A DNA stretch of 64,000 nt from Balanoglossus misakiensis (taxonomy: Eukaryota > Animalia > Hemichordata): assembly GCA_040954595.2 (NCBI GenBank), contig CM082590.2, positions 9,574,088 to 9,638,087 of the forward strand, in the 5' to 3' direction. The notes beneath the pieces were generated by a model. That model made no database searches and was not told the origin of the DNA. It was given only the letters and a program-made list of their open reading frames with translations. Shown here one piece after another: positions 4,687 to 64,000 of this stretch. The first letter of the stretch is position 1; every line of letters begins with the position of its first letter. Both the position numbers and the translations under genes were made by a program.

Positions 4687-13786
<9,100 letters not shown>

Positions 13787-16583: not shown

Positions 16584-18400
16584 CAAAGGTAAATGGGGGA
16601 AATATATCATACAAAACATGAAATGCAGCCAAAATGAAATAAACATATCTTTGAAGGAAGCTACGAGTATCTAAACTCATACGAAAGCTGACATGGTGGG
16701 AAGGGCATTGTAAAAAAACAGACACTACTTGAAATGGACTAGATCAAAGGTGCTATTTTGGCAAAGGGGCGTGTACAATCATTGCACTATTGTCTCTGAT
16801 TGTGTGCTGAGTAGAGATTTAGAAATGGACGAAAGGGGGAGGGGTCTCCTGGTCCTAAAATCTGAAGTTTTGCTGTAATGAAAAACATAACAATTTGAAA
16901 TTATTCACTTCTTTTGTCAAGGCATTTCTGCAAGACTTATTCTGTGTTCTGTGGCGTGTGTCCATGAAACCAACCCTTTGGATGTCCGATGATTTCTGAG
17001 CGAACAATGTCTTGAATTTTTGTTCCGCAGAAGGCATCGATCTGTCAACAGTTGATGTCGCTTCAGAAATCGACATCCTGAAGACAGCAGTGGACCAATC
17101 AGAACTGTTTCCCATACTTCATGATGTTGCGCCGGACAATAGCGATGTTGTTCCGTCGCCCGGATTTGATGTCATGGGAGACATCTTCTTCGATGCCTTT
17201 ACGGATCTGTCAGGGCTTCTAAGTGGGGTAGGTGATCTTTTGATTCAAGTGTTTACCCATCCAACCCTGTTTTGGCTGATGCAAGCTTAGTGTATGTTAT
17301 TTGTGATGCAAGACATCATCATTCTCAAAGTCCTGCAAGATATTGACATTCCCAGGGTCCTAAATTCTCAGTGACATCACTTGTCGTCGTGGCAACAATT
17401 TTCAATACCTTGCATGCATAATTAATGAGGGGTGTTTCACAACATGATGCAAGCTCAGCACTTCTTGATGAAATGTCAGCAAAATAAAACAGCAAAACGT
17501 TGAGAGTGAATAATTCTTTCTGCGATGGTTGTGATGCGGATAATATCAAGATGGTGTCGTTTGCGGTAATCAATCTTTTTTCTTGTGATTCAGATTTTTA
17601 GAATTGGTTTTGCTGTTGTTTTTATCGTTTGATGTACTGTAGAACTGATCTTTCTCAAGAATGACTTCAGTCAAGACTGTGTTAGTGGCTACGCCAGTGT
17701 CTATAGTGGCCACTTTCTTACAGTATCTGTGCATTTTACATGTACCTTAATTGATGAGTCTATGAAGGCCAGGAACTTTCCTAAACTAGCCTTTATTGAC
17801 AGGTCATTTAATGCACATGTAAATTGCAAATTTTTTTTAACAAAGTGGCCGCTATATAGAGGTGGTAACTAACACAGGTTTGTTGAAAAGTATATTTGGT
17901 TTTTGCTGAGGTGGGGAAACAATAAGATTAATGTATGCCTTAATATTATTTGTTTACAGGAGGAGCCCTGTGGAGCTACATCTGATGTGGAAGTGCTTGA
18001 TACAATAAACAGCGAGGCTATTCTACCAAGTACTTCCACCCCCTTTGAAGAGAAAGCGGTACAATCTGGAAAGTCCCCAAGAAAACGAACGCTTGCTGTT
18101 TACGTGGAAGAGGATGACAATGAATTCGAACAGGAAGAGAAGAAGCCGAGGACCTCCACGTCAACCGCAAGCTTCGAGAAATATCGCGAGAGGCGCGACA
18201 AGAACAACGTCGCTTCGAGAAGATCGCGCGAGATCAAGAAAGTCAAAGATTCTGAGCTGGTCAAAAAAGCTGAAGAACTGGAGGAAAGTAACAACAAACT
18301 TAAAGACCAAATAGAAGAACTGACGAAGCACACAGAATTTTTGAGAACGAAATTAATCGAGACTCTGTCATCGAAAAGATTGGCACAAGCCCAGAAGTAA
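16522..18400 (+). CDS. bZIP transcription factor, C/EBP/PAR-like, 3 coding exons
   Basis: Exons 16522(or 16531)-16588, 17031-17227, 17960-18400 join in frame (phase 1, then 0). Basic region KYRERRDKNNVASRRSR followed by leucine heptads (LEESNNKLKDQIEELTKHTEFLRTKL); acidic N-terminal half. Confidence 0.85.
17277..17474 (+). promoter_or_regulatory. Intronic cluster of C/EBP-ATF (CARE/AARE-like) motifs
   Basis: TGATGCAAG at 17277, 17304, 17445 and TGATGAAAT at 17466, all fitting TGATGnAAn. Confidence 0.5.
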
Positions 18401-19276: not shown

Positions 19277-24239
<4,963 letters not shown>

Positions 24240-30560: not shown

Positions 30561-33102
30561 ATGGCTGAACAGAATTCGGAAGCTACTACGTTATCAAGAA
30601 GTGACTTAATAGAGGCATTTTTCGACAGGGTAGGTGACAGACACTGTACTTTGATTTGAATGACAAAAGACCCTGGCCATTTTCTTAACCAGCGCGTCGA
30701 TCACAGACGATTAACGGTCGCGCGGTCACAAAACATAGAATATCCATTGTGTTATATATTTACAGTGTATATTAAATCAGAATGTCACTGGCAGACTGAA
30801 TAATCACCAAAGAGATCACTGACGTTCGATATATTAGTTGATGATGATGCTGACCAGTGGCTCTGTTTCAATGTAATCCATTTCATATTGTACACACCCC
30901 ATTGTAGATTTCAAGCGCGTCGACTCGAGCGCGTCTGATCTTTATAATGATAAACACATGTGCATTTCTGCATTGCAAGAATGTGTCGATTTCATGGCGA
31001 TATGTCCTGTGCAGATAGGATTTTTGGCCTTTTTTGGCAACAAGAGCTTTCTTCATAAAGTTATTATGGCATAGCTGTAATACTGCTGTTATAACAAGTA
31101 TTTAGTGATTCTTATTCCTGTATTTCATGTTTTCCAGGGTCAGGAATTGATGGAAAAGCTTGGATGCCGGATGTTCCTCCTTGTATCAGAAGACGGAATG
31201 CAGTCGGAATACATGGGAAGTGAGGATTTCTTGAGGGAGTTCTACTCTTGTGGATTGAAAGTGAAACCACAAGACGTTCCCAGAAAGAGTGTGAAGCGAG
31301 CGAGGCAACCAGCGGTTTGGATCCATCCAAGCGACGGGGGAAGATATGATCAAGAAATTCTCTACAGCAGTGGACAAAATACAACACCACATTCATTATT
31401 AGTGCCACAGTCTATTGAAACTGGACAGGCAGTTTCTATGAATCCTGAGAATGGCACAAGAACAAGTAGCTCCTTTGGAACCAGAGTAGGTAAAAGTCAA
31501 TCGGGTGATAACTGCGACCAACAGGCTCTGATTGGAAGTGATGGCAACTGGCAACATCAAAAGATATTTTTGCGGCAAAGACGTTATTGTAACCAGTTGG
31601 AAATCCAGCGTCGGACTTTAAGTATGGAGAATCCTGTTGCTGCAAGTAATGAAGGGAGCAGTGATTTTAAGTCATCGTCTGCTGAACACCGCACATTAGA
31701 ATCAGATGATGGAGATGACGCTGAGTTGCCAGGCAACCAAAATGGTGATGGTGAAGAAGTTGCCATGGGTAGTTGTGAGGGGCTGGGCGGTATAGCAGCA
31801 AGGATGGAGGAGAGAAATTATGAAATGAAAGATGGAGACCGTGATACTGATATGGCTGGCTTTGAGATTAGGCAAGTTACTGATGAGTTGCCAGGCAACC
31901 AAAATGATGAGTTTGACAATAGAACGCTTGCACAAGTGAAATATCCGATTTTTGTGAAACGTGGGAAAAGGATGTACTCAGAGAAAGAGGACGAGACAAT
32001 AGACGTTGCAAAAAAGAGAAATCTTGCAAAGCGTAAAACCCAAAAATTCAATTCTGAAGAGGAGGTTGACAACCACCGAGAAAAGCTGAGAAGTTTATTC
32101 CAGGAATTCAATGAAAGTGAACAGTATGTGTGCGGGAAGTGTGGCAGATCATTCAAGCAAGTCCACGGCTTGGAGATCCATCAGGTAAAAGGGCTGTGCT
32201 CGGAATGCAAGTGTCAGTTTTGTGGGAAGAGTTTCCCGGTGAAGGAGTGGCAGGAACATTTGCTGAAGGAACACGCGGAGAAGATGCTGATCTATGACTG
32301 TCATCTGTGCGGGAAACAGTTTGTGCATCGCTCGAAGCACTACCACCACGTGCAGAACCACGACGTTGACCAACGCCCCCACACATGCGGTGTGTGCGGA
32401 GCAACATTCAAATGGCACTACTCATTGACGAAGCATTTGCAGAAACATCAAGGCGTAACGGTGAAGTGTCAGTTCTGCGATTACGAGGCTGTCACGCAAA
32501 GCGATCTGAAGAAACACGAAAAAAAGCACACCGATGACAAATACGATTGCAAGTATTGTGGGAAGAGTTTAACCAGCGAGCCTAGCTTACACAGACACAT
32601 TGAACGCTACCACGTCAAATCAAAGTATAAATGCAACATTTGTGAGAAGCAGTTTTCCATGCAACCTGAGCTGCGCGCACACATGCTGCGACGCCACCAA
32701 GAGAACCCGGAACTTCACAAATGCGAGAAATGCGACAAAGGTTTCTTGACCGCGATTCTTCTCAAAGCGCACGTGCGTGTGATCCACAGCGAAAATCCCG
32801 TTCAATGCGAAATCTGCGGCAAAAAATTCAAACACATCTCCAAGTTGAAGGTGCACATGCCCATCCACTTCAAATCCGAGTTCCAGAACCACCAGTGCGA
32901 CCTTTGCCCTCGGAAGTTCCTGTCCCGGCCGCAGCTCAACGTTCACGTGCGATCGGTGCACTCGGACGAAAGACCGTTCAAATGCGAGAAGTGCAATTAC
33001 TCCTGTAAACTGAAGGGGAATCTGACGAAACATATGAAGACACACAAAGCATCATCTGAACCTGCAGCTGAACCTGTGGCTGACAAAGGAAGCCTTCCAT
33101 AA
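30561..33102 (+). CDS. C2H2 zinc-finger protein (cluster member 3), 2 coding exons
   Basis: Exon 1 30561-30629 (MAEQNSEATTLSRSDLIEAFFDR|GTAGGT), exon 2 31138-33102 (GQELMEKLGCRMFLLVSEDG...), about 11 fingers. Confidence 0.92.
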
Positions 33103-33876: not shown

Positions 33877-34687
33877 ATGGATGGCATATCGAAGTTAGCA
33901 AAACCAACCTGGCCTTTGCCTTCAAATGGTTTGGATAATCAGCTTTTGGGAAAACAACTCAAAGACAGTTTATTTGCTACGGTGAGTGAGTGATTTCCTC
34001 GGGTGGACAAAGTTAGGTAGAGATCCATATTCTCTTGATAGCAGAGACCTCCGCTTTGGAAGACTAATTTCTATCCAGATCGGAGCCCAGATTCCCTGTG
34101 TGGGACTCGCGGTCTCTTTGACGGAACAGTCAAATGTGAAAATCGAAGGTTGTTGTTGTTGTCGTCGTCGTGGCAGTGGTGATTTCCACCAAAATTATTG
34201 ACCCAAACACAATAACTTCTTTTACAGTGCCGGGAATTGATGGATAAGGTCGGCTGCAATGTCTTCGTGATCATCTCCGAAGACGGAATATCATCTGAAT
34301 TTTTTGGAAGTCAAGACTTTGTTAGGGAATTCAAAGGAAGAGGATTGACTATGACTCCATGTGATGTGGAAATAAACCCTGTTACTGGTGTTTCCGGGAA
34401 AGGACCAGGAATGTCTAAATCGTCTCATGCTGGAAGCAGTCTAACTAAGGAAACAGCTGTACCCTCTGAAAGACAACGTGAACATTTGACTGGGAGAATA
34501 TTACAGGTGGAAGAAACTGATGTTGAGATGGAGACAACTTTGGAAGATCGTTTGCAAGCAGGTGAGATATCAGATGGTAAACATGATGATGTTGATGATG
34601 ATTATTTTGATGGTGATGGTGGTGATGACGATAGTGGTGATGATGGAAATGATGACGACTATGATGAAGAAGAAGATAGTGATGATG

Positions 34688-34776
<89 letters not shown>

Positions 34777-36048
34777 ATTGATGATGGTAACTTCAACAAG
34801 GACAATGGTTCAAACCATATGGAAGATCATAGACAATTGGAGGAGAGACTACACCAAACAAACAACTCGGGAGAAGTGAGCAGTGCTTATGGAGAGGCTG
34901 ATTCACTCCCACAAATAAATAACCATGGAAACAGTGATGTGTCTGATGGTGATGCAGGAGAACACTGTGATGTTGCCATTGGCGACAAAAATCTCCACAA
35001 GCAGTCTCACCAGCACAATTTGCAGATGAATGTTTTGCCTGGCAGTATTTCCAACAACTTTGGAGCTGCAGATAGCGATGATGCAAAGAGAAGGAAAATA
35101 CACAGGGAGAAGGTCAGAGAAGCGGCCATCATTATACAGAGAAATAAACCTTTCATTTGCGAGAAATGCGGTTACGGGTATCAGCTGAAACGAGGCTTGG
35201 ATTTCCACATAGCGAGCGGTGTTTGTAGGAAGAGAACTTGCCGATACTGCAAAGTCGACGTGATATTCAAAGACTGGACTGACCACGTGGCTGATGAACA
35301 TGCGCATAAGATTAAACTTTTACCTTGTCGCCGTTGTGATAAAATTTTTATAGAACGGCACGAAAGACTCCATCATATGAAAACAGAACACCAGTCTGAG
35401 ATGATCTTCCCGCAGAAAATTACTGATGAAAAGAGTCGCAGAAAAAAAGCCTTCAAGTGTCGTTTTTGTGCGCGCTCTTATGCAAAAGAATCCACGACAG
35501 CTAGACACGAAGAAAAACACATCGCCACGAGAAGGGATTCGAATACGTGTCAGTTATGCGGTAAAGAATTCAAAGGCAGGTCGATTTTCATGCGACATGT
35601 TGAAGATGTTCATTCCAAACATCATTTTCCGTGCACCGAATGCGACAAAAAGTACAGAACCAAGCTGGAATTGGATAAACACATGGAGAACCATGGTAAA
35701 CTATTCAGAACATATACCTGTACATTATGCAGCGAAACGTTCAATACGAATAATGAATATGCCCGACATCGTAAATATTTCTGTAGAAAAATCTCACGAG
35801 TTCCATTCATCTGTGAGATATGTGGCAAGAGTTTTTCCAGAAAGTATTATTTGACGTCTCATCTCAAGCAACACGAGAAACCTCGTCACAAGTGTGACCA
35901 CTGCCCTCGTGTGTTTAATCTGAAATCAACACTGACAACGCATATTCGGTCCGCGCACAGCGACGAACGACCCTGGCAGTGTGACAAATGTGGCTACCGA
36001 TGCAAACTACGAGAGAATCTTCAAAAGCATTTGAAAATTCACAAATAA
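33877..36048 (+). CDS. C2H2 zinc-finger protein (cluster member 4), 2 coding exons
   Basis: Exon 1 33877-33981 (...KQLKDSLFAT|GTGAGT), exon 2 34228-36048 (CRELMDKVGCNVFVIISEDG...), poly-Asp tract, about 10 fingers. Confidence 0.9.
34681..34773 (+). repeat. (GAT)n coding microsatellite encoding poly-Asp
   Basis: About 30 GAT codons with one GGT interruption inside ZF member 4. Confidence 0.95.
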
Positions 36049-42553: not shown

Positions 42554-43228
42554 TACCATATAAATCCACTGAACTATACTAAACCGCATTGACAGTTTTG
42601 CAAATTTCTCCCTTTTCCAGCAAAACATTAATAGAAGCGAAATGCAAAGTATTTTCAGACAGTTTTTATGACCCTATTATCACAAAATCGGCGTGTCTGT
42701 GTTGGGCACCTACATAAATATGGGGACGAAGAATAACATCTATGTATAGTGTTAATAGACTCGAACAATTACAGTGGTGTTCATGGCAACCAGCCAGCGC
42801 CCTCTCCATCACCCCGGGGGTGTCCATAATTCACCATTTTTTCTGTAAAACTGTAAATACAATGTCTGCGACCTTTTCAACATTACAGAGAAGTTATGCA
42901 TCCTTGTTTACAGTGGTTCGCCCTACGCTAATTTGACATATTTCGAACGGCATTTTTATGACTTTAATATGCATGGCATTTAAATCCTGGCATTTTGATT
43001 AATGTCAACTTTTACTCATTTCTTCCACAGGATATGCTGCGGAGGAATTGCTTATTATAGACTTATACAACTTTACAAGAATTGGTTCAAGTAGGCTAAC
43101 AATTGAAATCTAAAGAGGTTTCCTGAACGAACGTTTGGATTTTGAAACTGGGATCTTCAAGTTCACGAACGACGTTTTTGAAGCAGATATTTTCTGACTG
43201 TAAATTTGTTTGGTAAAACAGACCAAAA

Positions 43229-44116
43229 ATGAATAACTCTACCGAATATTACGTCGACTTGCCGAACTATATGGTACCTGGCTACATTTCCATGGCAATA
43301 TCAGTCATGGGAATTTTGAATAACTTGTCGTTTTTTCTCGTCATCGTCAAATCAAAGGAGTTGCACAGTGGGGTTTATAGGTTGTTGGTGAATCTAGCAA
43401 CTTCTGATGTTGTCTTTTTGGCGGTGGAGATTTGGACTCAACGCCGGGGGCACAACTGTACCAATGAGGCCCTTCATGCCATGACGCTTTGCGAGTCAAG
43501 TTGGACGTTCTTGCTTATAAGCATCGATAGATATATCTCTGTGTGTCATCCCTTCAGTGCGAAATCTCTCCTCAAGACTAGGAACATGGCAGTCAGTGTA
43601 TCGCTAACTTGGGCGTTCAGCCTTCTCATGACCCTACCACACTTGGTACACTGTTCCTACTTCCTTTACACCATTACTCTCTGCCTCCAAGCATCTGTCA
43701 TGTTTATCTCCGTCACCGTGGCAACCACGTTGTATGTTTTGGTTGCCAGGGCGATGCATCGACGAAGCAAATCCTCAGCCGTGCCCGTGTCCAGCGTCAA
43801 TGAATCAAAACGCGTTGTACGGACAGTAATAATAACAAACATAGTGTATTTTAGTTGTATTTTTCCAGCTTTTCTGCTACTTGTGATTTTGCAATTTGAA
43901 TACGATCAGTCACTAGTAATCATACTCTATAATATACACCCCTATGTCCGTCTCCTGTTTCCGATAAACAGCTCAATAAACCCATTTATTTATCTTTCAT
44001 GCAACTCGACTTACAGAAAGGCGGCACAGAAAGTATACTGCCAGTGCAATGTTAAAAGCAAGCGCCACAGAAATAAGGAAAGCAATGGAACTAATACAAA
44101 AGAAGTTATGCTATAA
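43229..44116 (+). CDS. Class A (rhodopsin-like) GPCR, orphan, single coding exon
   Basis: N-terminal N-glycosylation sequon (NNS), GILNN (TM1), NLATSD (TM2), SIDRY (TM3), W..S.L.TLP (TM4), CIFP (TM6), NSSINPFIY (TM7). Acceptor at 43030 and donors at ~41938 and ~39592 suggest 5' non-coding exons. Confidence 0.9.
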   Translation: MNNSTEYYVDLPNYMVPGYISMAISVMGILNNLSFFLVIVKSKELHSGVYRLLVNLATSDVVFLAVEIWTQRRGHNCTNEALHAMTLCESSWTFLLISIDRYISVCHPFSAKSLLKTRNMAVSVSLTWAFSLLMTLPHLVHCSYFLYTITLCLQASVMFISVTVATTLYVLVARAMHRRSKSSAVPVSSVNESKRVVRTVIITNIVYFSCIFPAFLLLVILQFEYDQSLVIILYNIHPYVRLLFPINSSINPFIYLSCNSTYRKAAQKVYCQCNVKSKRHRNKESNGTNTKEVML

Positions 44117-47973: not shown

Positions 47974-50900
47974 TTATTTCTTCATCATGCCCCTGGTAAA
48001 AGAAAGGAAAAGGAAAACATGAAGACATTTATGTTCCAATATTCACTGAGGCTTATAGAGGTTCTTTTAACATTCTATGCCTAAGGGACAGGAAAAGTTG
48101 TTCGGTATAAACAGGTTTCCAGATTAGACAGGGTTCGGTTTAGACGGGTTTTACTGTGGTTTGCAGATTCTCTTCCCAGAATGCAATACTTACGATAAGA
48201 GCTCAATGGGCAACGGGAATATGATTGTAGAGTTCTTCTCGGCAGAGATCGCGTTCAACGTCTGCAGATAACGCAGTTGGAGCGCGGCTGGAGATTCATT
48301 GATGACATCGGCGGCTTCCTTCAATGCACGTGACGCATTCTGCTCTCCCTCAGCTGCGATCACCTGTTGAAGACAATCATAAAAGAATGCTGTGTTTAAA
48401 AACCATGTACTATCCTTGTAAGATCACAAGCAAAAGACATCTCAATGTTGTCTTGTGTTTATAAAATTTGTCTTTACTTAGAAGTCTGTGACTGCGAACG
48501 ACCGTAAAGTTATAGACACTCATACATACATACATACATACATACATACATACATTTATACTTGCGTACATACAAACAGAAACTATCTTCAGTCTATAAG
48601 ATAAGGTCCTATCATATATGGCAATAGGAGCTTAACCCTTTCACCCCCACATCACTCTATTGAGGTCCAACTTTACCATTGACAATAATGGATTTGGACC
48701 AAACCAAAGTAGTGAAAGGGTTAAAATAGGGGAGTCTTACCTTGGCTCTTGCTTCTCTGGATGCTTCTGCCTCGGCGGCCATGGCACGTTGTAATTGAAC
48801 GGGTAGACGCACGTCCTTACTGCAAATTTAAGACACAACATGACAAATTCTTTTCCCCAATTCAAAATACCTGAATTCTAGACCCATTTAAGTTAATACT
48901 TGTCCGCACATGATAACATTATGCTAAAATTACCAGCACTTTGCTATCTTTCATAAATCGCAAAAAAACTCACGAGTACGCCATGCATTGGAGAAAATCA
49001 AACTAAAGCCTACAGATTTTACCCTCTCTTGCCACCAACATGGTCGAGTCCTATTGTCTCTACCTATGGATGGACCCATTTAGAGGGAAACAGGGGGGGT
49101 TGAAGGGTATGATTATCCCTCGTAGGTAGCAAGCGAAACAAATCTACCACAGAAAGAAAACGTTGCCTACAGAAACGTAATGGGAGCGTTAACATAGAAT
49201 GCGACAGCCTGAATCCTTGATCTCGGAAACTTTACTCACATTTCGACTCGTTCCACATAGATACCCCATGGGTCTGTAGCTTCATCAATAGCGGTCTAGA
49301 ATGTTAAAATCAGTGATCGGGACATTAGAAATGACAGCGAATCTGTGTGAAACAAGGCCATTAGTACTCACATTTCAACACGTTCCACATAGATACCCCA
49401 GGGATCAGTGGCATCGTCCAAGATACTCTAGAGTGGAATGAAAATAACACGGGAACAAAAAATGAAAACGATTCCGTCAAACAAGAGCTGCAGAAAAGGA
49501 AACAGACCCCTTTGACTACCACAGTGTCATTGGGCAAAAGTTCTTGTTATGGATTTCAACACTATATAAACTTTTGTTGATTGATTGATTGACCACAGAT
49601 AAGTGAAAACATTTTCATAGAGTTGCTCCAGAAGGCTATCTGCGACCGAAAGTGCGAGTCGCACTAATATCGCAAGTCGCTATCTTCGACTGTCTCAAAC
49701 GATATCTGCGAATGATATCTTCAACCCCTTTGAATTATGTCTACGATCGTCACAGTTGTAGTAATTTTGTCCCAGAAAGGTTTTCCGAGTAGACTGATGT
49801 CCGCGTGCGGTGGCCCCGGGTTGATTTGACCGTAGACAGCCATTGTTATTGTTGACATATGAATTCTAGTCCGGACTTGAATTCAAATTCTGCACAACCA
49901 CAATGCTGAACATACACATGTTATCGTTCTCAGTTAAAGTATGTCCAATGGCCACTGTAGGAGGTACCACATGCCGGTAGGACGAGGGTTAAATAATAGC
50001 ATGGATTATGGTAGTCAAAGGGTTATTTCTAATCGCAGCAGAATGACAGCTTGTCAAATGAAAGTTTTGCTACAGAGATGGAACACATTATAGAAAAGTC
50101 AAGCATGAAAATGTCTTGAAAATGAAGTCAATGCGATTGAAATAAAGCAAAGAAAACAAAGAGAATGACAAGCGAGCTCTTGTAGAATGCCTCAGTCGAT
50201 GCCTTAAAGTTAAAGTTTCTAACACTAGTCCGGACTTGAATCATTTGTGGTCAATAACAAAGGCCATTACTCATATACAGGCTCTGATGAGTATCTAATG
50301 ACTGAACATAAAGCTGTCCAGAGTAAGAAACTGGTGTTATACAAGGGAGAAAAATAGACATAAGTTAGAGTTACTGGGGCTTTAACAAACATGTGGTACC
50401 AGTACACATACCGACGTTGAAAGATTACTAAAAGCTGATTATGTCCAAAGTTGACTAGTTGAATACACAGGTAGTTGCTCTTGTAAGTTGTATGCCTCTA
50501 GCACGCACTAGACTAGTCTCTTTGATAACGGCCACAATACACAAAGTTATCATATAATGCCAATTCACAGACTGAATAATTTTCATAGAAGTTGAAAACA
50601 TCGCGCCACCGCCAAAAAGTATCGAACGTTTTAAGTGATTTCTCTCCGTTTCACAACTGCTGAAGAGTATCGAACATCACAATTACCGACCTGCATTTGA
50701 TGACTGATGTTCTCACGGTCAGCCAAGATCTCGGCCAAGTTCTTAGTTCCCAGGACGTTTCTCAATGTGGTCTGCGCCAAGAGACGGGTGGAGTGGTTGG
50801 AGTTCTCCACGTTGGCCACGGAAATGGTGGCGTTGTTGACGCGGTAGTAGACGACCGCGTCCACGGATACGGTCACACTATCCTTGGTCAGAATCTGCAA

Positions 50901-53900
50901 GCAGAGAATCAGGAACTTAACTCTTTGAACGACATATTAACGTGTCCGTCATCTTTCAAAAAAATAAACCCTCATAACTTTTTCCACATATTTTCTCAAA
51001 TTTTGATTAAGATATGAAGATTATGAAAAAGTGTTTCTATTTGGTCTAAAATTAAAGGGGAAAATTAGGCTTGCTCAGAAAGAACCACACTGAAGTAAAA
51101 CTGGAGGATACGAGAGATGTCCAGTTAAGCAGAAAGGAACCTTACCTCCTGAGGGGGTACATCAAAAGACACTGTTCTCAGATCAACCTTGGTGTAGCTG
51201 TCTGTACATGGCAGGACAAAGAAAATACCTAGCGAGAAAGGAAATTAAAGGGACATTAGCTGTTTCTTTTGGCTTTATTTTCAGTATTTTCGTTCTGTGT
51301 ACCAAATGTAATTTCTTGTTCTACTCCAAACAGCACGCTAATTTTGCCTCTCCCATGACAAACAAATTGAAATGTTGACAGCACCAGTGGCGTATTGTAG
51401 TACTTCAACAATTCATAACTGTCACAGTGTGTGCTGTCACATGTCTGTGAGTCACTCAAGTTACCATTGAGGTTGTCAGTGAAGTCTTTGGGAGCGTTCT
51501 CAAATGTCACGGTAGAACAGGTTAAGGTTTTGTCTCGATCAACGTAACCGATATCAGCTTTTCTTTGGCTGACATTGCAAGTCTGAAAATCAACGACTGC
51601 TTTGTATACGCAAATTGACTCATGTGGTTTTATTTCAATTGTGTCACTGGTGCTATGGCGATTGCTGTTAACACAGCATTAGTCAGCAGTTTTCATGTTA
51701 TTGTGAAATACATGCAGGCCAAATATATGTTTCCAAGTCCTTCAAAACAGTGAGAAAGTCTGGGGAATCAGTAGTCAAACCAAGGGTAAACGTACAGCAC
51801 CAATGGTGTAGCACGACCCCTGATTGTGGATGTTTCGAAAAGAGTGAACGCACCCTACATAAGCACAAATCATAACTGTTTACTCACCAGGTCCTTTGGC
51901 TCCACCAGGCAACAGACGACCAAGTCGAAATATGACTGCTCTTTCATACTCTTGCACCACCTGAAAGAGTCAACGCACTTTCATGATAGTCATTGATGAA
52001 CATTACACGTACCCTCAAAATTACCTGACTATAAAACAACATTATGTCACAAACATATTAAATGTTTAATTTTGTGACTATTTTTATCAGTATATGAATT
52101 CTATATATCAACCACGGATTTTTGTTTTCAAGCAACTTCTCAAATCATTTACAGTAGTAAAGTTATCATTTACACAATTTCTCTATTTGTAGTCTACTGA
52201 GAAAATCCTTAAAACAATAAAAGTTGTGTACCCTGTAACCATATAACCCCCTTTTGACTCTCTTTCACCCCCTTTCTTTGTAAATGGATCCAACTTTACC
52301 GACTGATCAATGGGACCGTACCAAAGCATGCGGGTGAAAGGGGGAGTCACCTTATCTTACCTTGATGCAAACACAGAGAGATAACGGGAAGGTTATAACT
52401 ATGAAGAACCCTGAAACAATCAGGAGTATCACTCCGCAACATCCAATGGAATAATCGGCTGAATCGTCCGCTGTGGACAAGATATACATACAATGAAGGA
52501 GATCGTTAATTTAATGGCGGGTACAGACAAAGAGATCTTACCTTGATGCACACGCAAAGAGAGAAAGGGACAGTAATGATGACCAAGAACCAAGACAATA
52601 TAGTCAGAATCCATCCACAACATCCCGGCGAATAATCTGCGGACTCGTCCGCTGTTAGTAGAAGGAAAAGATTGAGGAAAGTTGAGGATTTTATACAGTT
52701 AGTGGCAGAACTATCGTGCTATCCAGGTGTGCCCTTACAAAAACATTCTATAGATATCTATAGAATTCTATAACCCGCTATTGAATTTGAAATTGTGAAC
52801 TTACAAAAACATTCTATAGATATCTATAGAATCCTATAGCCCGCTATTCAAATGTCACAAAAGACTACAGAATTTCTGTAGACATCTATAGAATTCTCTA
52901 GGCTTTTGAAATTCTATAGAAGTTTGCCGAATTTTTATGAAATTTATAGAATTCACTAGGCTTTTGAAACTCTACAGACGTTTCTAGAATTTCTGTGGAT
53001 ATCTGTAAAATTCTCTGTAGTTTTTGGACCCTTTTCTGAAGATGATTTTTCAGCTCAGACAAGCCTGAGACTTGCTAGAGGCCCCCACAACCCTGCAGCA
53101 CCTGGACATGCTTGAGTTCCGCCACGTACTGAAGTGAACATCACACTATTATACTGTGGAATACTTTATTTTCATTGGAATTTATTTTCCCTGAAATTCT
53201 TTTTTCACTATTTCTTGGCGGCATCTTATGCGCAAGGAATAGGAAATAAGAATTTCCAGTGGGTTTCTATTTTAGAGGAAAAATTAGTCCGTGAAAAAAT
53301 AGTGGTCCTCGTAAAAATTAAGTATTCGACAGTAGTTGTTAGATTACAGACTGTGTCAAAACCACAACACATTAACAGAAGATTAGAGAAGTAGGAATCG
53401 CTTGGTTCAGAGATTAGAAGAAGGGATGCCGTCATAGACTGGATGTTGTGGCTTTGGAGTGAAATTATAATTTTACAGAAAATAACGCCAGCTGTACTTT
53501 TACAATTGTATGTATACTGGCTAAATAGAGACAGACCATGCGACATTCTTGAAGGAGTTATACAAGAAAGTAGATACACAGAGCAAGAATATCGTTAAGT
53601 TAAGAATTAATTGTTTATGTTAGTACATCCATGCATTGTGTAATGACAAATCAACATGCATAAATAGTGAATAAAAAATCATTAATTACAATCATAACAG
53701 ACAATCATTAATTACAGATAACGAGCAATGCCCATCCCTCTACACATGCTAAACCAAGAAGTCCCATACGAATATGGAAGCCTCTAGCATCGCTCAACAA
53801 GAAAGGGACCTTTCCTGTATTAAAAATTACGACCTCAATTCTGTGTTTTTATATTCAAATATGAATGAAGCCTACACACACATGAATAAGTCATATTCAT

Positions 53901-59442: not shown

Positions 59443-60920
59443 TTCTTGACCGGGGTCTTGACTAACTTTGTTCGTAGACATACACGGTGGGTTTATTTAT
59501 CGCTTGAGAGATATAAATCTCTGATAAGTTGCGATATGAAAGTGCGATTTCGTGACTTAAGTCGAGAAAGGCCAATAGACGAATGCCTACGTCAATTCGC
59601 CATACTGCCTCTTATTTAAGGACCGCTTAAGTTGGTCGAAATCAGTGATTCAACATCACGCAGGTCACTTGACTATGCATGTATTATGTTGGCATGGCAA
59701 TCAACGGAAATAAATAACCTTTGGTCAATAGCAGGGTCAATAAAGTTGCTCTATCTATTGTTGGCTGACTTCCAATGTGGACACAAGAAAAGATATCTGT
59801 TTGTTAAGACATCTACGTCACATTTTCACGTCAGAGGTAGAACAAAGATCGACTTAAAAATAGCAACGCATATATGTGACCTCCAAACTTTAAGTGTTTC
59901 AGGTCGCAGACCTCTCAAATGCGGTCATCAGGTGATAGCCCCCCCCCCCCCGCTTTATTCCAAGTTTAGATTTGCGGGAAAAGTGGGAATAGAGGGTTAA
60001 ACATTTCTTGAGTGGTTCGAGTTTATTTTGGTGAATTCTGTATTTTTATGGACAAAGCTTTTGAGCAGAGAAAAACAGCTCTCTCACATTTAGATAATTG
60101 ATGATTAGAACAATAAAATTGCTGATGTATGTATTGTGTATTGTCATACTTTTTGTACCTGATCTTAAAATATATATTTTGCTGTCCCAACTATGTAAAA
60201 CTTCTGTAACCTCCTTTGCATATGAACCGGAGGTATTGAAACGCAAATAAACGAAACTGAATCTGAGCTATTTCTTCGCAAAAGTAAATTAATTTGACTG
60301 AGCGTACGAGATGTTGCAACAGGGAAAAACGTAAAACAAACGGCGAAGACATTTTCATCACATGGCGCATGAGGGCGCTGTCGTTTAAATAAGTACAGAG
60401 AAAAATCGCTCATTTTTGTCATTATTTTGTTATTTTATTCAAGTTTATTTGGTAGGCTATTTACTCACAGATGCATGTCATTGTCTGATCTCATGGCTGC
60501 ATTAAAATCCATACATGAACAGTACATATGAATATACAATCATCATTTTATGGTCAATATCAACAGTTGGAGACGTATACTATTGTTATACATATGGGCG
60601 GATTGAGTTGAAACAAAATGTTATATATTGGCGTTGACATTAAAATTGACATTTATAAAAAAAAGTACATTCCACATAAAATGAGCAAAAGCAGTCAGTC
60701 GTATCGCTAAATATTTACAAGACAAATAACAAAATGTCAGTAGATGTGTTTTGTGGCAGTAGATACAGGCTTTTGGTATTCTTTACAAGAATATTAACAT
60801 CTTCAAATAACAGTGTAAATGCACGTTTCGACTATTTATCTTCGAAAAGCATTACACTGGCGAGCACAAGCTGTTGTAGGTGTAGCTGAAAATTCCCAGA
60901 ATCATTCTGAGGATAAATGT

Positions 60921-63900
60921 TCACGGTATTGTCAAACCACACTCTATCCATCTCACGTAGAATTTTCCAGTCCAGGTGTTTCCAATTCCTCCTCCAATCG
61001 ACGCCAAGCGAGGTGCCTCTCCCCATCTTGAGCGGTAATAACCTGAAAATGAAATTTATATAAATATTTTAATAAGCATAAATCATAAGATAAAATGTCA
61101 GAAAGCCAAAACTGTCAGGAAAGGGCGAAACAAAACAGAAATGGAAACTGTAAAATGATGAAATTTCTGGTCAGACTGGAAATAGTCGGGCACCCAACCG
61201 GAAACTCACCACGCGTCAATGGCGAATCCCAGAAATCATTGTCAATGCTTCTCGACTCCGCAGTTCCACCCAGAAATTCACAGTGATCTTGACCATGGCC
61301 GCTGGAGTCGGCAACGTTGAGGAAGACGTCATCTAAGTCATCGCTGAGGAAAATCTTGTATCGGGTTGGGGAACACAGTATCACACCCACGTACATGCCT
61401 ACATCATATCCACTCAGCTTAACTAACTGGTCTCCGTTGCAACTGTTGTACGTGTCATCATACATGAAGTTTCTACGTGTCCACCTGTCGCGAAAAACTA
61501 CAGAAAAATGTCTCTTTAAAATTGTGAATTTAGTTTAAGAAAAACGAAGTTCAATACCAGTGCCTTTTAACATTACTTTCAGTTGTTAATAACTTTTCAT
61601 AAGTTTCACAAGCGACTCAGTTTTGGAGTTCATTTCTTAAAGAAGATTATGCATGATCTTACTTTCTTCTTCGCTATCGTCTTCATCATCTTCATCATCA
61701 TCACCGTTTCCCGGAGACCAGTCTTTGATGCAGGTGCAGTTTCGACCGATGATCCTCAATCCCGTTTGCCGACATTGAGGACAGCAAACATCGAGACCGT
61801 TCACGCTACCGACCCAATCTCTATCACAGTCGTTGCACATAGCTCCACTCCAGCAGATTTCGTATTCTGGTTCTGGTAACAAACAAAAAACAGTAAAGTA
61901 TTAAAACTCACGAGCTGTGGTTGAAGTCGTGCAGACAACCAGTTTGCACACATTTTCGTCTGATGCACGACCAAACTGCAATGACATGCATGGAACATGT
62001 ATGCAGGAAGACGTAAGCGAGCGTGCGCACTTACCAGTTGGTACTCCAGGTACAGGATCCACACAGACGACATTGCAGCCATTCAGACAGCATTTCTTTC
62101 TGCCTGAGCAATCTTGGTCGCTTTCACACTCTTGTCTACATCTACCGCCGCTTCCACCCCCGAAAGCGGGACATTTACCATCTTTTTCTGTTGACCAAAA
62201 ATGTCGGAGAAGAAAACCTATGAGTTGCAAACTCTCTAAATTTGTTATCGCAAAATATCTCCAGAGCACAAAGTCAAAAATATCAACATATCCCAACAAA
62301 ATGCCAGGATGTCAAGATTCCATGATGGTCACGAAACTCACCAACTGGCACAATAGGTGCTGGATCTCTGCAGACAATATTGCATCCGTCCCGGCAACAT
62401 TTCTTCGCACCCGTGCAGTCAAAGTCGCTTTCGCACTCTTGTCGGCATCTGAAGATATCCCCACCTCCCTCAGATGCGGGACAGGTACCTTCTTTCTCTG
62501 TAGTTAAGAGAAGACAGCAGAGAACATGAGCCAAAATAATAATAAAAGTAGAAGTCGGCGTCAACTGACTGACGGAATTGGTCGTTTGTTAACAAGTAAA
62601 TCGTAGACTCGAGATATGACAAGTCGCCAGTGTATTACAGGGTGTAGCATTTGCAAGCCGTCTTGCCCAGATGATATACCAAACCCCAAACAATAACTGC
62701 GTACAGATCACACTTACCACCGGGATCTTCTTCAAGTGGCAAAACACAAACATGTCCACAGCCATTACTGCAACACTTGGTACGATCCGGACAATCTCGG
62801 TCATACTGACACATGTCAACACAAATGCCCGCTTCACCGGGGACTGGACAGGTTCCAGGTTTAACAACTGCGGAGAAAAAAGGAATTAATTTACTTAATA
62901 TTTATTGTTGGTGTCATACAAAGATCAGTGGGATTATTAGGAAATTAAAACGAGGTCACTGTAAGAAACAGGGGCTGACTTACCAGGGGGGGCAGTTGGT
63001 GCTTTAGTTGTTGTGCTTATTGGTCTGGCCGTTGTCCTCCCCTGAGGGTTGGTGATCAGGTGGTAGTTACACAAATCCCCGGTGTTACAGCACACCGTTG
63101 TAGTTTGGTAAGCCGACCTGCCGGGGAGCTGACGACACAAGAACGGATTGGCGTCCACGGTGGCCTTGTCCAGACACCGGAAAGAGTACTTCTCTCGCCG
63201 TCCAACCACCACCTTTTCGCCGAAACAGCTTCCGTCTGTGACGCAGGTTCTGTTCCTCGAGTTGCAGTCAGTGCAGTAACACGTTACTGTGGGATAAAAT
63301 CAACGATTGACACTTTGTGATATGATCTAAAAATCGGAAGAACTACTGAGACCTACTTGATCTGACGAGCTTTGGTGTTCCGTTTCGCATGTTTCGTGGA
63401 GTTCTGAAAATTGTCTATTCACGAGCTCCAATTCAGTGTAACTTATAATCACTTAAAAATATTATATTTGAAAGTCACGGTCATATTAAATTATTCTACC
63501 AAACTCAATGAGGCTACTTACACTGTCTGTGGTTTGTAGCCGTTGGTTCTGGTGTTGGCACGACCCCACTGCACGAACCCTCTCTGAAGGTAACGTCATC
63601 AATCCCCATGCTTGTGTATGGCCAACCGGAGTGCACGGTTTCAAAGACAACCTGAAGAGGGAATTTAAAAAAATATGTTTTTCATATTCTCATAATGATA
63701 TTTTGATCCTTGTTGTCCATAATATATAATTTACCTTATCATAAGCTAGGAGCAACAAAATAACACATCTGGCCAATTCTGTTGGACGATAACTAAACCT
63801 GATGCTTTCGTCATTTTTGCTCAATTCAAGTTGGCCTTTTTTGGTTACATTTGATGGCTTGTTTGTGTTGTTCAGCTCAATGAGTGATGGTCATAATTAA

Positions 63901-64000
63901 CATCATTTCGCTGATCAGTTGAAACACGATTCGTACCTGATATGAGTCGCCAACCTCACTGCTTATATCAACTTCAGCCAGATGCCACCTGCGTTGGTTA
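60921..64000 (-). CDS. Mosaic extracellular protein, 5'-partial: MAM, TGF-beta type I receptor-like ectodomain, 3 WAP, Cys-rich module, TARSH/FNDC1-type C-terminal domain
   Basis: Exons >64000-63937 and 63651-63522 (NQRRWHLAEVDI...QVVFE...GIDDVTFREGSC, MAM end), 63286-62984 (LTCYCTDC...TCVTDGSCF...CCNTGDLCN), 62867-62718, 62497-62342, 62187-62035 (KxGxCP...C..D.DC....KCC..GC...C, WAP), 61872-61663, 61497-61210 (YVGVILCSPTRYKIFLSD...GHGQDHCEF), 61042-60921 (GYYRS...WIECGLTIP*). All in frame. Confidence 0.88.

Follow-up and report, generated by a model that had tools for sequence, protein, structure and literature searches.

A type I TGF-beta receptor-like ectodomain in a predicted soluble mosaic protein of acorn worms, a candidate extracellular decoy

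A receptor-type exon in a mosaic gene

The window analyzed here, a stretch of 64,000 nucleotides (nt) from the acorn worm Balanoglossus misakiensis (assembly GCA_040954595.2, contig CM082590.2, positions 9,574,088 to 9,638,087), contains the 3' part of a gene for a mosaic protein in which one exon encodes a domain resembling the ligand-binding ectodomain of TGF-beta receptors. On sequence evidence, this domain very probably derives from a type I receptor, and its source is most likely a receptor of the ALK4/5/7 type. The mosaic architecture is real and conserved across acorn worms. Whether the protein acts on TGF-beta family ligands is a matter of probabilities that we weigh below against several other readings.

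The receptor-domain exon runs from 63286 to 62984 on the minus strand (303 nt), is bounded by AG and GT and has phase 1-1; its acceptor is pyrimidine-rich and ends in CAG, while the donor reads GTAAGT. An earlier annotation made from the letters of the window (the sequence-only reading) had described a symmetric 303-nt phase 1-1 exon without giving its strand, which our model bears out. The peptide it quoted is also right, the first leucine being encoded by a codon that the upstream intron interrupts. The ten-cysteine ectodomain lies at about 63286-63066 and is followed by a Pro/Thr-rich linker at about 63065-62984. Nine exons, from 63999 to 60924 on the minus strand, join into 524 stop-free codons and are closed by a stop codon at 60923-60921. 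The eight introns measure 116-285 nt and all have GT-AG ends, and the 5' part of the gene continues past the right-hand end of the window.

Pfam searches of the single exons place the last part of a MAM domain first, then Activin_recp and three WAP domains; an unnamed Cys-rich module, whose tail is acidic, precedes TARSH_C, which spans the last two exons. The soluble C-terminal domain that had been placed after the WAP domains is thus TARSH_C, and the product stops at its end with no hydrophobic tail. The maximal 19-residue hydropathy of the product was 1.28, compared with 2.52 in the transmembrane helix of a genuine receptor, and neither Pfam nor hydropathy revealed a transmembrane helix, GS box or kinase in the mosaic gene of the window or in its orthologs, in agreement with what had been read from the sequence. 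When a type I receptor (P0014, see below) was used as query, it matched the mosaic gene at the ectodomain exon only, and its sole kinase match in the window fell in a separate gene at about 7 kb.

Type I receptor likeness of the domain

The Pfam family Activin_recp (PF01064) matched the window exon with 32.5 bits (E 1.8e-7; curated cut-off 20.9) and was the sole family at E<=1 on the isolated domain in all four copies, those of the window and of orthologs in three other species. At the same threshold, UPAR_LY6, Toxin_TOLIP and CD59 had no match in any of the four, nor did BAMBI (PF06211). A search of the Protein Data Bank (PDB) with the exon returned 17 matches at E<=10, of which 16 were type I receptor chains and none was a Ly6 or three-finger protein. 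TGFBR1 ranked first (E 1.9e-5), followed by ALK4 (4.9e-4) and BMPR1A (0.01), in line with the earlier judgment that the domain is closer to ALK5 than to a generic Ly6/uPAR domain. A profile of the four orthologous domains found seven receptor chains in the PDB at E<=0.01, all of them ALK5 or ALK4.

A search of 1.84 billion cluster representatives yielded six proteins at E<=0.001: two orthologs, the receptor fragment P0014 and three repeat proteins (P0013, P0015, P0016). We discarded the last three, whose scores are noise summed over repeats: with the domain profile, none of their individual stretches scored above 10.2 bits. P0014 was the best single-domain match apart from orthologs; it combines an ectodomain with a transmembrane helix, a GS box and a kinase and shares 41-42% identity over the whole domain. 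With hhalign, the mosaic domain scored 98.4% to P0014 versus 9.6% to the ectodomain of a type II receptor encoded elsewhere in the window. The ten cysteines of the window domain are spaced 1,2,6,5,16,12,14,0,5 (with 17 in place of 14 in Glandiceps), and the first five spacings (1,2,6,5,16) are identical to those of ALK5 as counted on the PDB alignment.

Run against 1651 open frames of the window, the four-ortholog profile gave one strong match, the exon itself, which is a profile member; the next match reached 10 bits. Because the exon is in the profile by construction, independent support for the identity of the domain comes from the PDB match (E 2e-5) and from conservation in the three other species. 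An AlphaFold2 model built on the four-sequence domain alignment was poor (mean predicted local distance difference test score 45); a fold search with it placed TGFBR1 first at Z 3.9, with no row at Z>=5. Separately, a metagenome scan gave 173 pattern matches, of which one was confirmed, a 1-kb contig with only half an ectodomain exon (L006:431-563), whose product resembles the N-terminal half of the type I-like ectodomain and stops mid-domain.

Conservation among acorn worms

The order MAM, receptor domain, WAP and TARSH_C recurs in Ptychodera, Glandiceps and Saccoglossus, which represent three enteropneust families. The orthologs are P0001 and P0011 of Ptychodera flava, P0003 of Glandiceps talaboti (818 amino acids) and P0012 of Saccoglossus kowalevskii (partial at the C-terminus). 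All are predicted models annotated as uncharacterized. Pfam recognized Activin_recp on each of the four isolated domains and on none of the full-length orthologs scanned, which may be why the records carry that label. The receptor domain of the window is identical to those of the three orthologs at 57, 47 and 49 of 74 residues, all ten cysteines and 37-47 of the 64 remaining residues being preserved. For WAP1 the corresponding figures are 28, 17 and 16 of 40, and for the linker beside the receptor domain 15/27, 6/25 and 8/29. The number of WAP copies ranges from 1 to 4 among the orthologs.

We found no protein with the same architecture outside hemichordates, in searches that were word-limited or needed about 36 bits and that diverged relatives could escape. 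With the ortholog alignment as query, 7990 candidates were scored and seven were retained, P0003 and P0012 being the only orthologs among them. An echinoderm match (P0023) was without the receptor domain.

An orphan-fold module upstream of the MAM domain

The Glandiceps and Saccoglossus orthologs (P0003 and P0012) have a hydrophobic N-terminus that we interpret as a signal peptide, followed by a domain of about 180 residues and then by MAM. Residues 82-231 of P0012 matched betaglycan weakly (E 0.036), and family profiles did so at E 6e-5 and 7e-6. P0012 also has the precomputed Pfam accession PF26060, which we take to be a TGFBR3/endoglin N-terminal family. The structure was modelled on a Glandiceps paralog, P0004, rather than on the orthologs; its module is identical to those of the two orthologs at 90/179 and 90/183 residues, and the model was confident over most of the module. 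It aligned with the betaglycan orphan domain at Z 16.9 (root-mean-square deviation 2.6 over 149 residues), with human TGFBR3 at Z 12.7 and with endoglin at Z 11.3, and the next row stood at 5.5. The betaglycan, TGFBR3 and endoglin rows were the only ones at Z>=8 among 48,161 chains. Foldseek on the same model agreed (E 2.7e-7), and a phmmer search of the PDB with P0004 alone gave no significant match to betaglycan (E 1.9). The profile matches and the modelled paralog assign the upstream module of the orthologs to the betaglycan/endoglin orphan fold. It is a single unit in each protein and lies outside the window, and the orthologs that bear it showed no ZP family and no transmembrane helix.

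Relatives of the orphan module, at 25-35% identity, were also seen at five bacterial loci from two myxobacteria, Cupriavidus, Hormoscilla and one other bacterium (L001:463-1956, L002:1-1908, L003:988-3390, L004:826-1902 and L005:1096-2643), in tandem in L001 and L003. TARSH_C occurs in tandem in Chondromyces (P0005), and both scaffold modules thus have bacterial relatives. The sea urchin betaglycan is single-copy, as stated in the accessible text of PMC11239237.

Possible functions

From sequence comparison, the mosaic protein can be read as a likely secreted, low-affinity extracellular decoy for a ligand of the activin/myostatin/TGF-beta class, a proposal that we make tentatively and place somewhat below even odds. 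That the domain or the protein binds some ligand of the TGF-beta family appears slightly more probable than not. The B. misakiensis gene probably also encodes a signal peptide and an orphan module beyond the edge of the window. In the decoy reading, the receptor domain would occupy the type I (wrist) site of the ligand, weakly when alone; this weak binding would be helped by the orphan module, which would lend avidity, or by MAM, WAP and TARSH_C, which would cluster the protein in matrix or mucus. A ligand so held, or a capped complex of ligand and type II receptor, could not recruit the signalling type I receptor, and Smad2/3 signalling would be locally damped.

The binding surface offers some guidance. 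As described in PMC8718839, ALK4 and ALK5 anchor on the ligand via the beta4-beta5 loop, which has a five-residue N-terminal extension and bears a knob phenylalanine (ALK4 Phe82) as well as a cis-proline that matters for ligand binding. The prehelix of the ligand is contacted by the beta3-beta4 region of ALK4, and both receptors bind ligands of the activin class with inherently low affinity when they are not tethered to a type II receptor. The most conserved part of the mosaic domain is the Cys5-Cys6 segment, mapped to the beta3-beta4 face that meets the prehelix, where 11 of the 16 positions other than cysteine do not vary. An aromatic residue occupies the knob position in three of the four copies (Phe in the window copy and that of Ptychodera, Tyr in that of Saccoglossus), and Glandiceps has Gln there. 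A role in the TGF-beta pathway becomes more probable with the orphan-fold module that two orthologs carry.

Several observations weigh against the decoy reading. The Cys6-Cys7 (beta4-beta5) loop has 12 residues in all four copies versus 14 in ALK5 and P0014, and the cis-proline (ALK5 Pro55, ALK4 Pro77) is absent from all four. Thus the ALK4/5/7 hallmark, the five-residue extension with cis-proline, was not found, though ALK4/5 are nearest by sequence rank. This anchoring loop is also the least conserved part of the domain (4/12 and 4/14 invariant), and it includes the Gln at the knob position of Glandiceps. The low affinity of ALK4/5 by themselves, as given in PMC8718839, speaks against a strong trap. 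The orphan module and signal peptide were seen in two of the three ortholog species, the Ptychodera models beginning inside or after MAM. As to the module being single, both orphan subdomains of betaglycan are required for TGF-beta binding (PMC11865472, accessible text), and endoglin binds BMP9 via OR1, with no binding by OR2 alone (PMC5464963, accessible text). Its occurrence next to trypsin domains and in bacterial proteins means that the orphan module alone is no sign of TGF-beta binding. The loss of the cis-proline and loop residues, the low affinity of ALK4/5 and the single orphan module together make a strong stand-alone trap unlikely. Of the sequence-only reading, the type I identity of the domain and the soluble nature of the protein are upheld, and ligand trapping loses ground in the form of a stand-alone high-affinity binder.

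In a more specific form of the decoy reading, the type I ectodomain and the single orphan module would make up a composite trap, two weak sites jointly capturing an activin/Nodal/TGF-beta-class ligand in the matrix, and the single module would be a living example of the proposed unduplicated ancestor of endoglin and betaglycan. We consider this conceivable, with odds clearly on the other side.

Nearly as likely as the decoy reading is that the receptor-derived domain has been repurposed in a secreted component of matrix or mucus, with its beta3-beta4 face binding another partner or packing internally; this too falls short of an even chance. The loss of the cis-proline and of two loop residues in all four copies, the Gln knob of Glandiceps and the poorly conserved anchoring loop fit such a change of use. 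So do the protease-inhibitor-like WAP repeats, the adhesive MAM domain and TARSH_C, as well as the variation in WAP copies from 1 to 4 and the trypsin or coiled-coil modules borne instead by related scaffolds. However, two rare modules otherwise known from TGF-beta receptors and co-receptors are found in one chain in two orthologs, and the receptor domain is better conserved than WAP1 or the linker.

The protein could also bind its ligand and present, store or shuttle it, in the manner of betaglycan, which hands its ligand to signalling receptors; the accessible text of PMC11865472 describes TGFBR1 as displacing the orphan domain in this step. A weak type I affinity would suit such a hand-off, and two orthologs carry an orphan-fold module, but no membrane anchor is there to concentrate ligand at the cell surface, and a domain that mimics the type I receptor would itself sit on the site required by the signalling receptor. 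We regard this explanation as improbable.

A generic Ly6/uPAR three-finger module, similar to ALK5 by convergence, is far less probable still. The feature search of the ESM Atlas scored clusters of three-finger toxins, TGFBR2, LYPD2 and PATE at 0.81-0.83, as high as an Activin_recp cluster (0.81) or higher, but all these domain scores are below 0.9 and serve as leads only, three-finger folds not being separated, and the search gave no usable match for Ptychodera P0001. The Pfam family Activin_recp also takes in non-receptor nematode proteins. On the other side stand the empty Pfam and PDB searches for Ly6-type families reported above and the whole-domain identity to a receptor with a GS box. 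The least credible explanation, that the exon is an unspliced relic or the mosaic protein a gene-prediction artefact, can point to the predicted nature of all ortholog sequences, but it faces canonical GT-AG sites, a frame open through nine exons, the same order in the models of three other species, and the conservation of the ten cysteines and more than half of the other domain residues.

Relation to known systems

The mosaic domain shares with the ectodomains of TGFBR1/ALK5 and ACVR1B/ALK4 (PDB 6MAC, 3KFD, 7OLY) the ten cysteines, the first five spacings of ALK5, a short beta1-beta2 loop and a Pro-aromatic motif before Cys7. It differs in its mid-protein location, in a beta4-beta5 loop two residues shorter and devoid of the cis-proline, and in being part of a protein free of any transmembrane helix, GS box or kinase. 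BAMBI is likewise derived from a type I receptor ectodomain; it spans the membrane once, lacks the kinase and damps signalling. The mosaic protein is set apart from it by its soluble nature, with no transmembrane helix, and by the absence of a Pfam BAMBI match at E<=1. WFIKKN1/2 (GASP) are secreted multidomain antagonists of the activin-class ligands GDF8/GDF11 with WAP, follistatin, Ig, Kunitz and NTR domains and no receptor-derived domain. The WAP domain is shared, whereas Pfam detected no follistatin, Ig, Kunitz or NTR domain in the mosaic protein or its orthologs. With the ABI3BP/TARSH matrix family it has the C-terminal TARSH_C in common, but no fibronectin type III domain was detected and the remaining architecture is unrelated.

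Betaglycan (TGFBR3) and endoglin share with the Glandiceps and Saccoglossus orthologs the orphan-fold module, which in the orthologs lies close to the N-terminus. Those co-receptors have a duplicated, circularly permuted pair, as the accessible text of PMC5464963 describes it, whereas the mosaic orthologs have one module. They also differ in that the mosaic protein has no detected ZP domain or membrane anchor and that its orphan module is joined to a type I ectodomain in one chain. A comparable design is the engineered ActRIIB-ALK4-Fc trap, in which a low-affinity type I ectodomain becomes useful by being tethered to a second ligand-binding unit. As far as the accessible text of PMC8718839 goes, that molecule is man-made and includes a high-affinity type II ectodomain, while the only candidate second unit of the mosaic protein is the single orphan module. 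By its sequence features, the mosaic protein may thus be likened to a pseudoreceptor or ligand trap, yet it falls outside the type I receptors, BAMBI and the type III co-receptors on the features compared.

In line with the sequence-only reading, which knew this architecture from no described protein, we found no published description of the mosaic protein or its domain combination in the literature searched, a body of work from which most subscription papers are missing. The accessible part of the hemichordate genome paper (PMC4729200) lists TGF-beta novelties without the mosaic protein, and a term search of two supplementary spreadsheets was likewise empty.

Origin of the mosaic gene

The receptor-domain exon is one of six consecutive internal exons of phase 1-1. 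The ectodomain of the type II receptor in the window is likewise encoded by one phase 1-1 exon, of 336 nt, and that of human TGFBR1 probably sits in a single such exon too, exon 2. Hemichordates and a brittle star have proteins (P0004, P0022, P0023) that combine the orphan module with TARSH_C and bear no receptor domain. In the simplest history, a phase 1-1 exon for a receptor ectodomain would have been duplicated and moved by exon shuffling into an older scaffold, secreted and running from orphan module to TARSH_C, before the three families split. The ambulacrarian proteins ending in TARSH_C also vary otherwise, with coiled coil plus orphan module in Glandiceps P0004, trypsin plus orphan module in Ptychodera and Amphiura (P0022, P0023), and coiled coil plus WAP in Ptychodera P0002.

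Features and neighbouring genes of the window

The features of the window are collected in Table 1. The Cys-rich module of about 48 residues (61663-61872) occurs twice in Ptychodera P0002. A gene for a type II activin-type receptor (4690-7831, minus strand) lies about 53 kb downstream of the mosaic gene on the same strand. Splicing of the receptor-domain exon onto the kinase of this gene, 55 kb downstream, was considered and rejected, as several genes intervene and the type II receptor gene has its own ectodomain exon. Four long open frames between 25006 and 36045 carry C2H2 zinc-finger arrays and have a similar N-terminal motif (two of the four were scanned with Pfam). A long trinucleotide run at about 23150-23280 reads as poly-His or poly-Ile depending on the frame and is probably a simple repeat.

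Table 1. Coordinates of the mosaic gene and of other features in the window
Feature	Position	Strand	Evidence
3' part of MAM-domain exon (5' end outside window); phase 0 donor	63937..64000	-	tblastn with Glandiceps ortholog P0003, E 8e-5; GT donor
End of MAM domain and short linker, phase 0 to 1	63522..63651	-	Pfam MAM positions 131-158, 15.7 bits (partial, under Pfam cut-off); 80% identity to P0003 402-431
Type I receptor ectodomain exon, most likely ALK4/5/7-type, phase 1-1	62984..63286	-	Activin_recp 32.5 bits; TGFBR1 E 1.9e-5; hhalign 98.4% to GS-box receptor; 47-57/74 identical in three orthologs
WAP domain 1 exon, phase 1-1	62718..62867	-	Pfam WAP 55.8 bits
WAP domain 2 exon, phase 1-1	62342..62497	-	Pfam WAP 43.9 bits
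WAP domain 3 exon, phase 1-1	62035..62187	-	Pfam WAP 46.7 bits
Small unnamed Cys-rich module, then acidic stretch; exon phase 1-1	61663..61872	-	No Pfam family above cut-off; 34-40/48 identical in three orthologs
TARSH_C first part, exon phase 1-1	61210..61497	-	Pfam PF21731 110.5 bits
TARSH_C second part and stop codon	60921..61042	-	Pfam PF21731 positions 94-126, 21.1 bits
Two AATAAA hexamers, possible polyadenylation signals, about 470 nt 3' of stop	60434..60449	-	Motif scan
Multi-exon Band 7/stomatin-like gene, between type II receptor and mosaic genes	~48193-52718	-	
Intronless rhodopsin-family G protein-coupled receptor, between type II receptor and mosaic genes	43217-44113	+	
Zinc-finger frames	31081-33099, 34216-36045	+	
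Zinc-finger frames, near-duplicate pair	27027-25006, 30027-28069	-	
bZIP gene, between type II receptor and mosaic genes	17873-18397	+	
Type II receptor ectodomain exon, phase 1-1	7496-7831	-	
Type II receptor transmembrane and kinase exons	~7261-6482, 5800-5465, 5169-4690	-	

Significance

To our knowledge, the known extracellular antagonists of TGF-beta signalling have dedicated folds (follistatin, chordin, noggin, DAN) or are membrane pseudoreceptors. If the decoy reading holds, soluble reuse of the ectodomain of a signalling receptor itself would be a different way to shape Nodal, activin or TGF-beta gradients, in a group of animals that is central to the evolution of the deuterostome axes. 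A composite trap, if real, would be a natural counterpart of the engineered receptor fusions in which such a design has been known until now. Single orphan-fold modules in secreted proteins of ambulacrarians and in bacteria also bear on the origin of the fold of endoglin and betaglycan.

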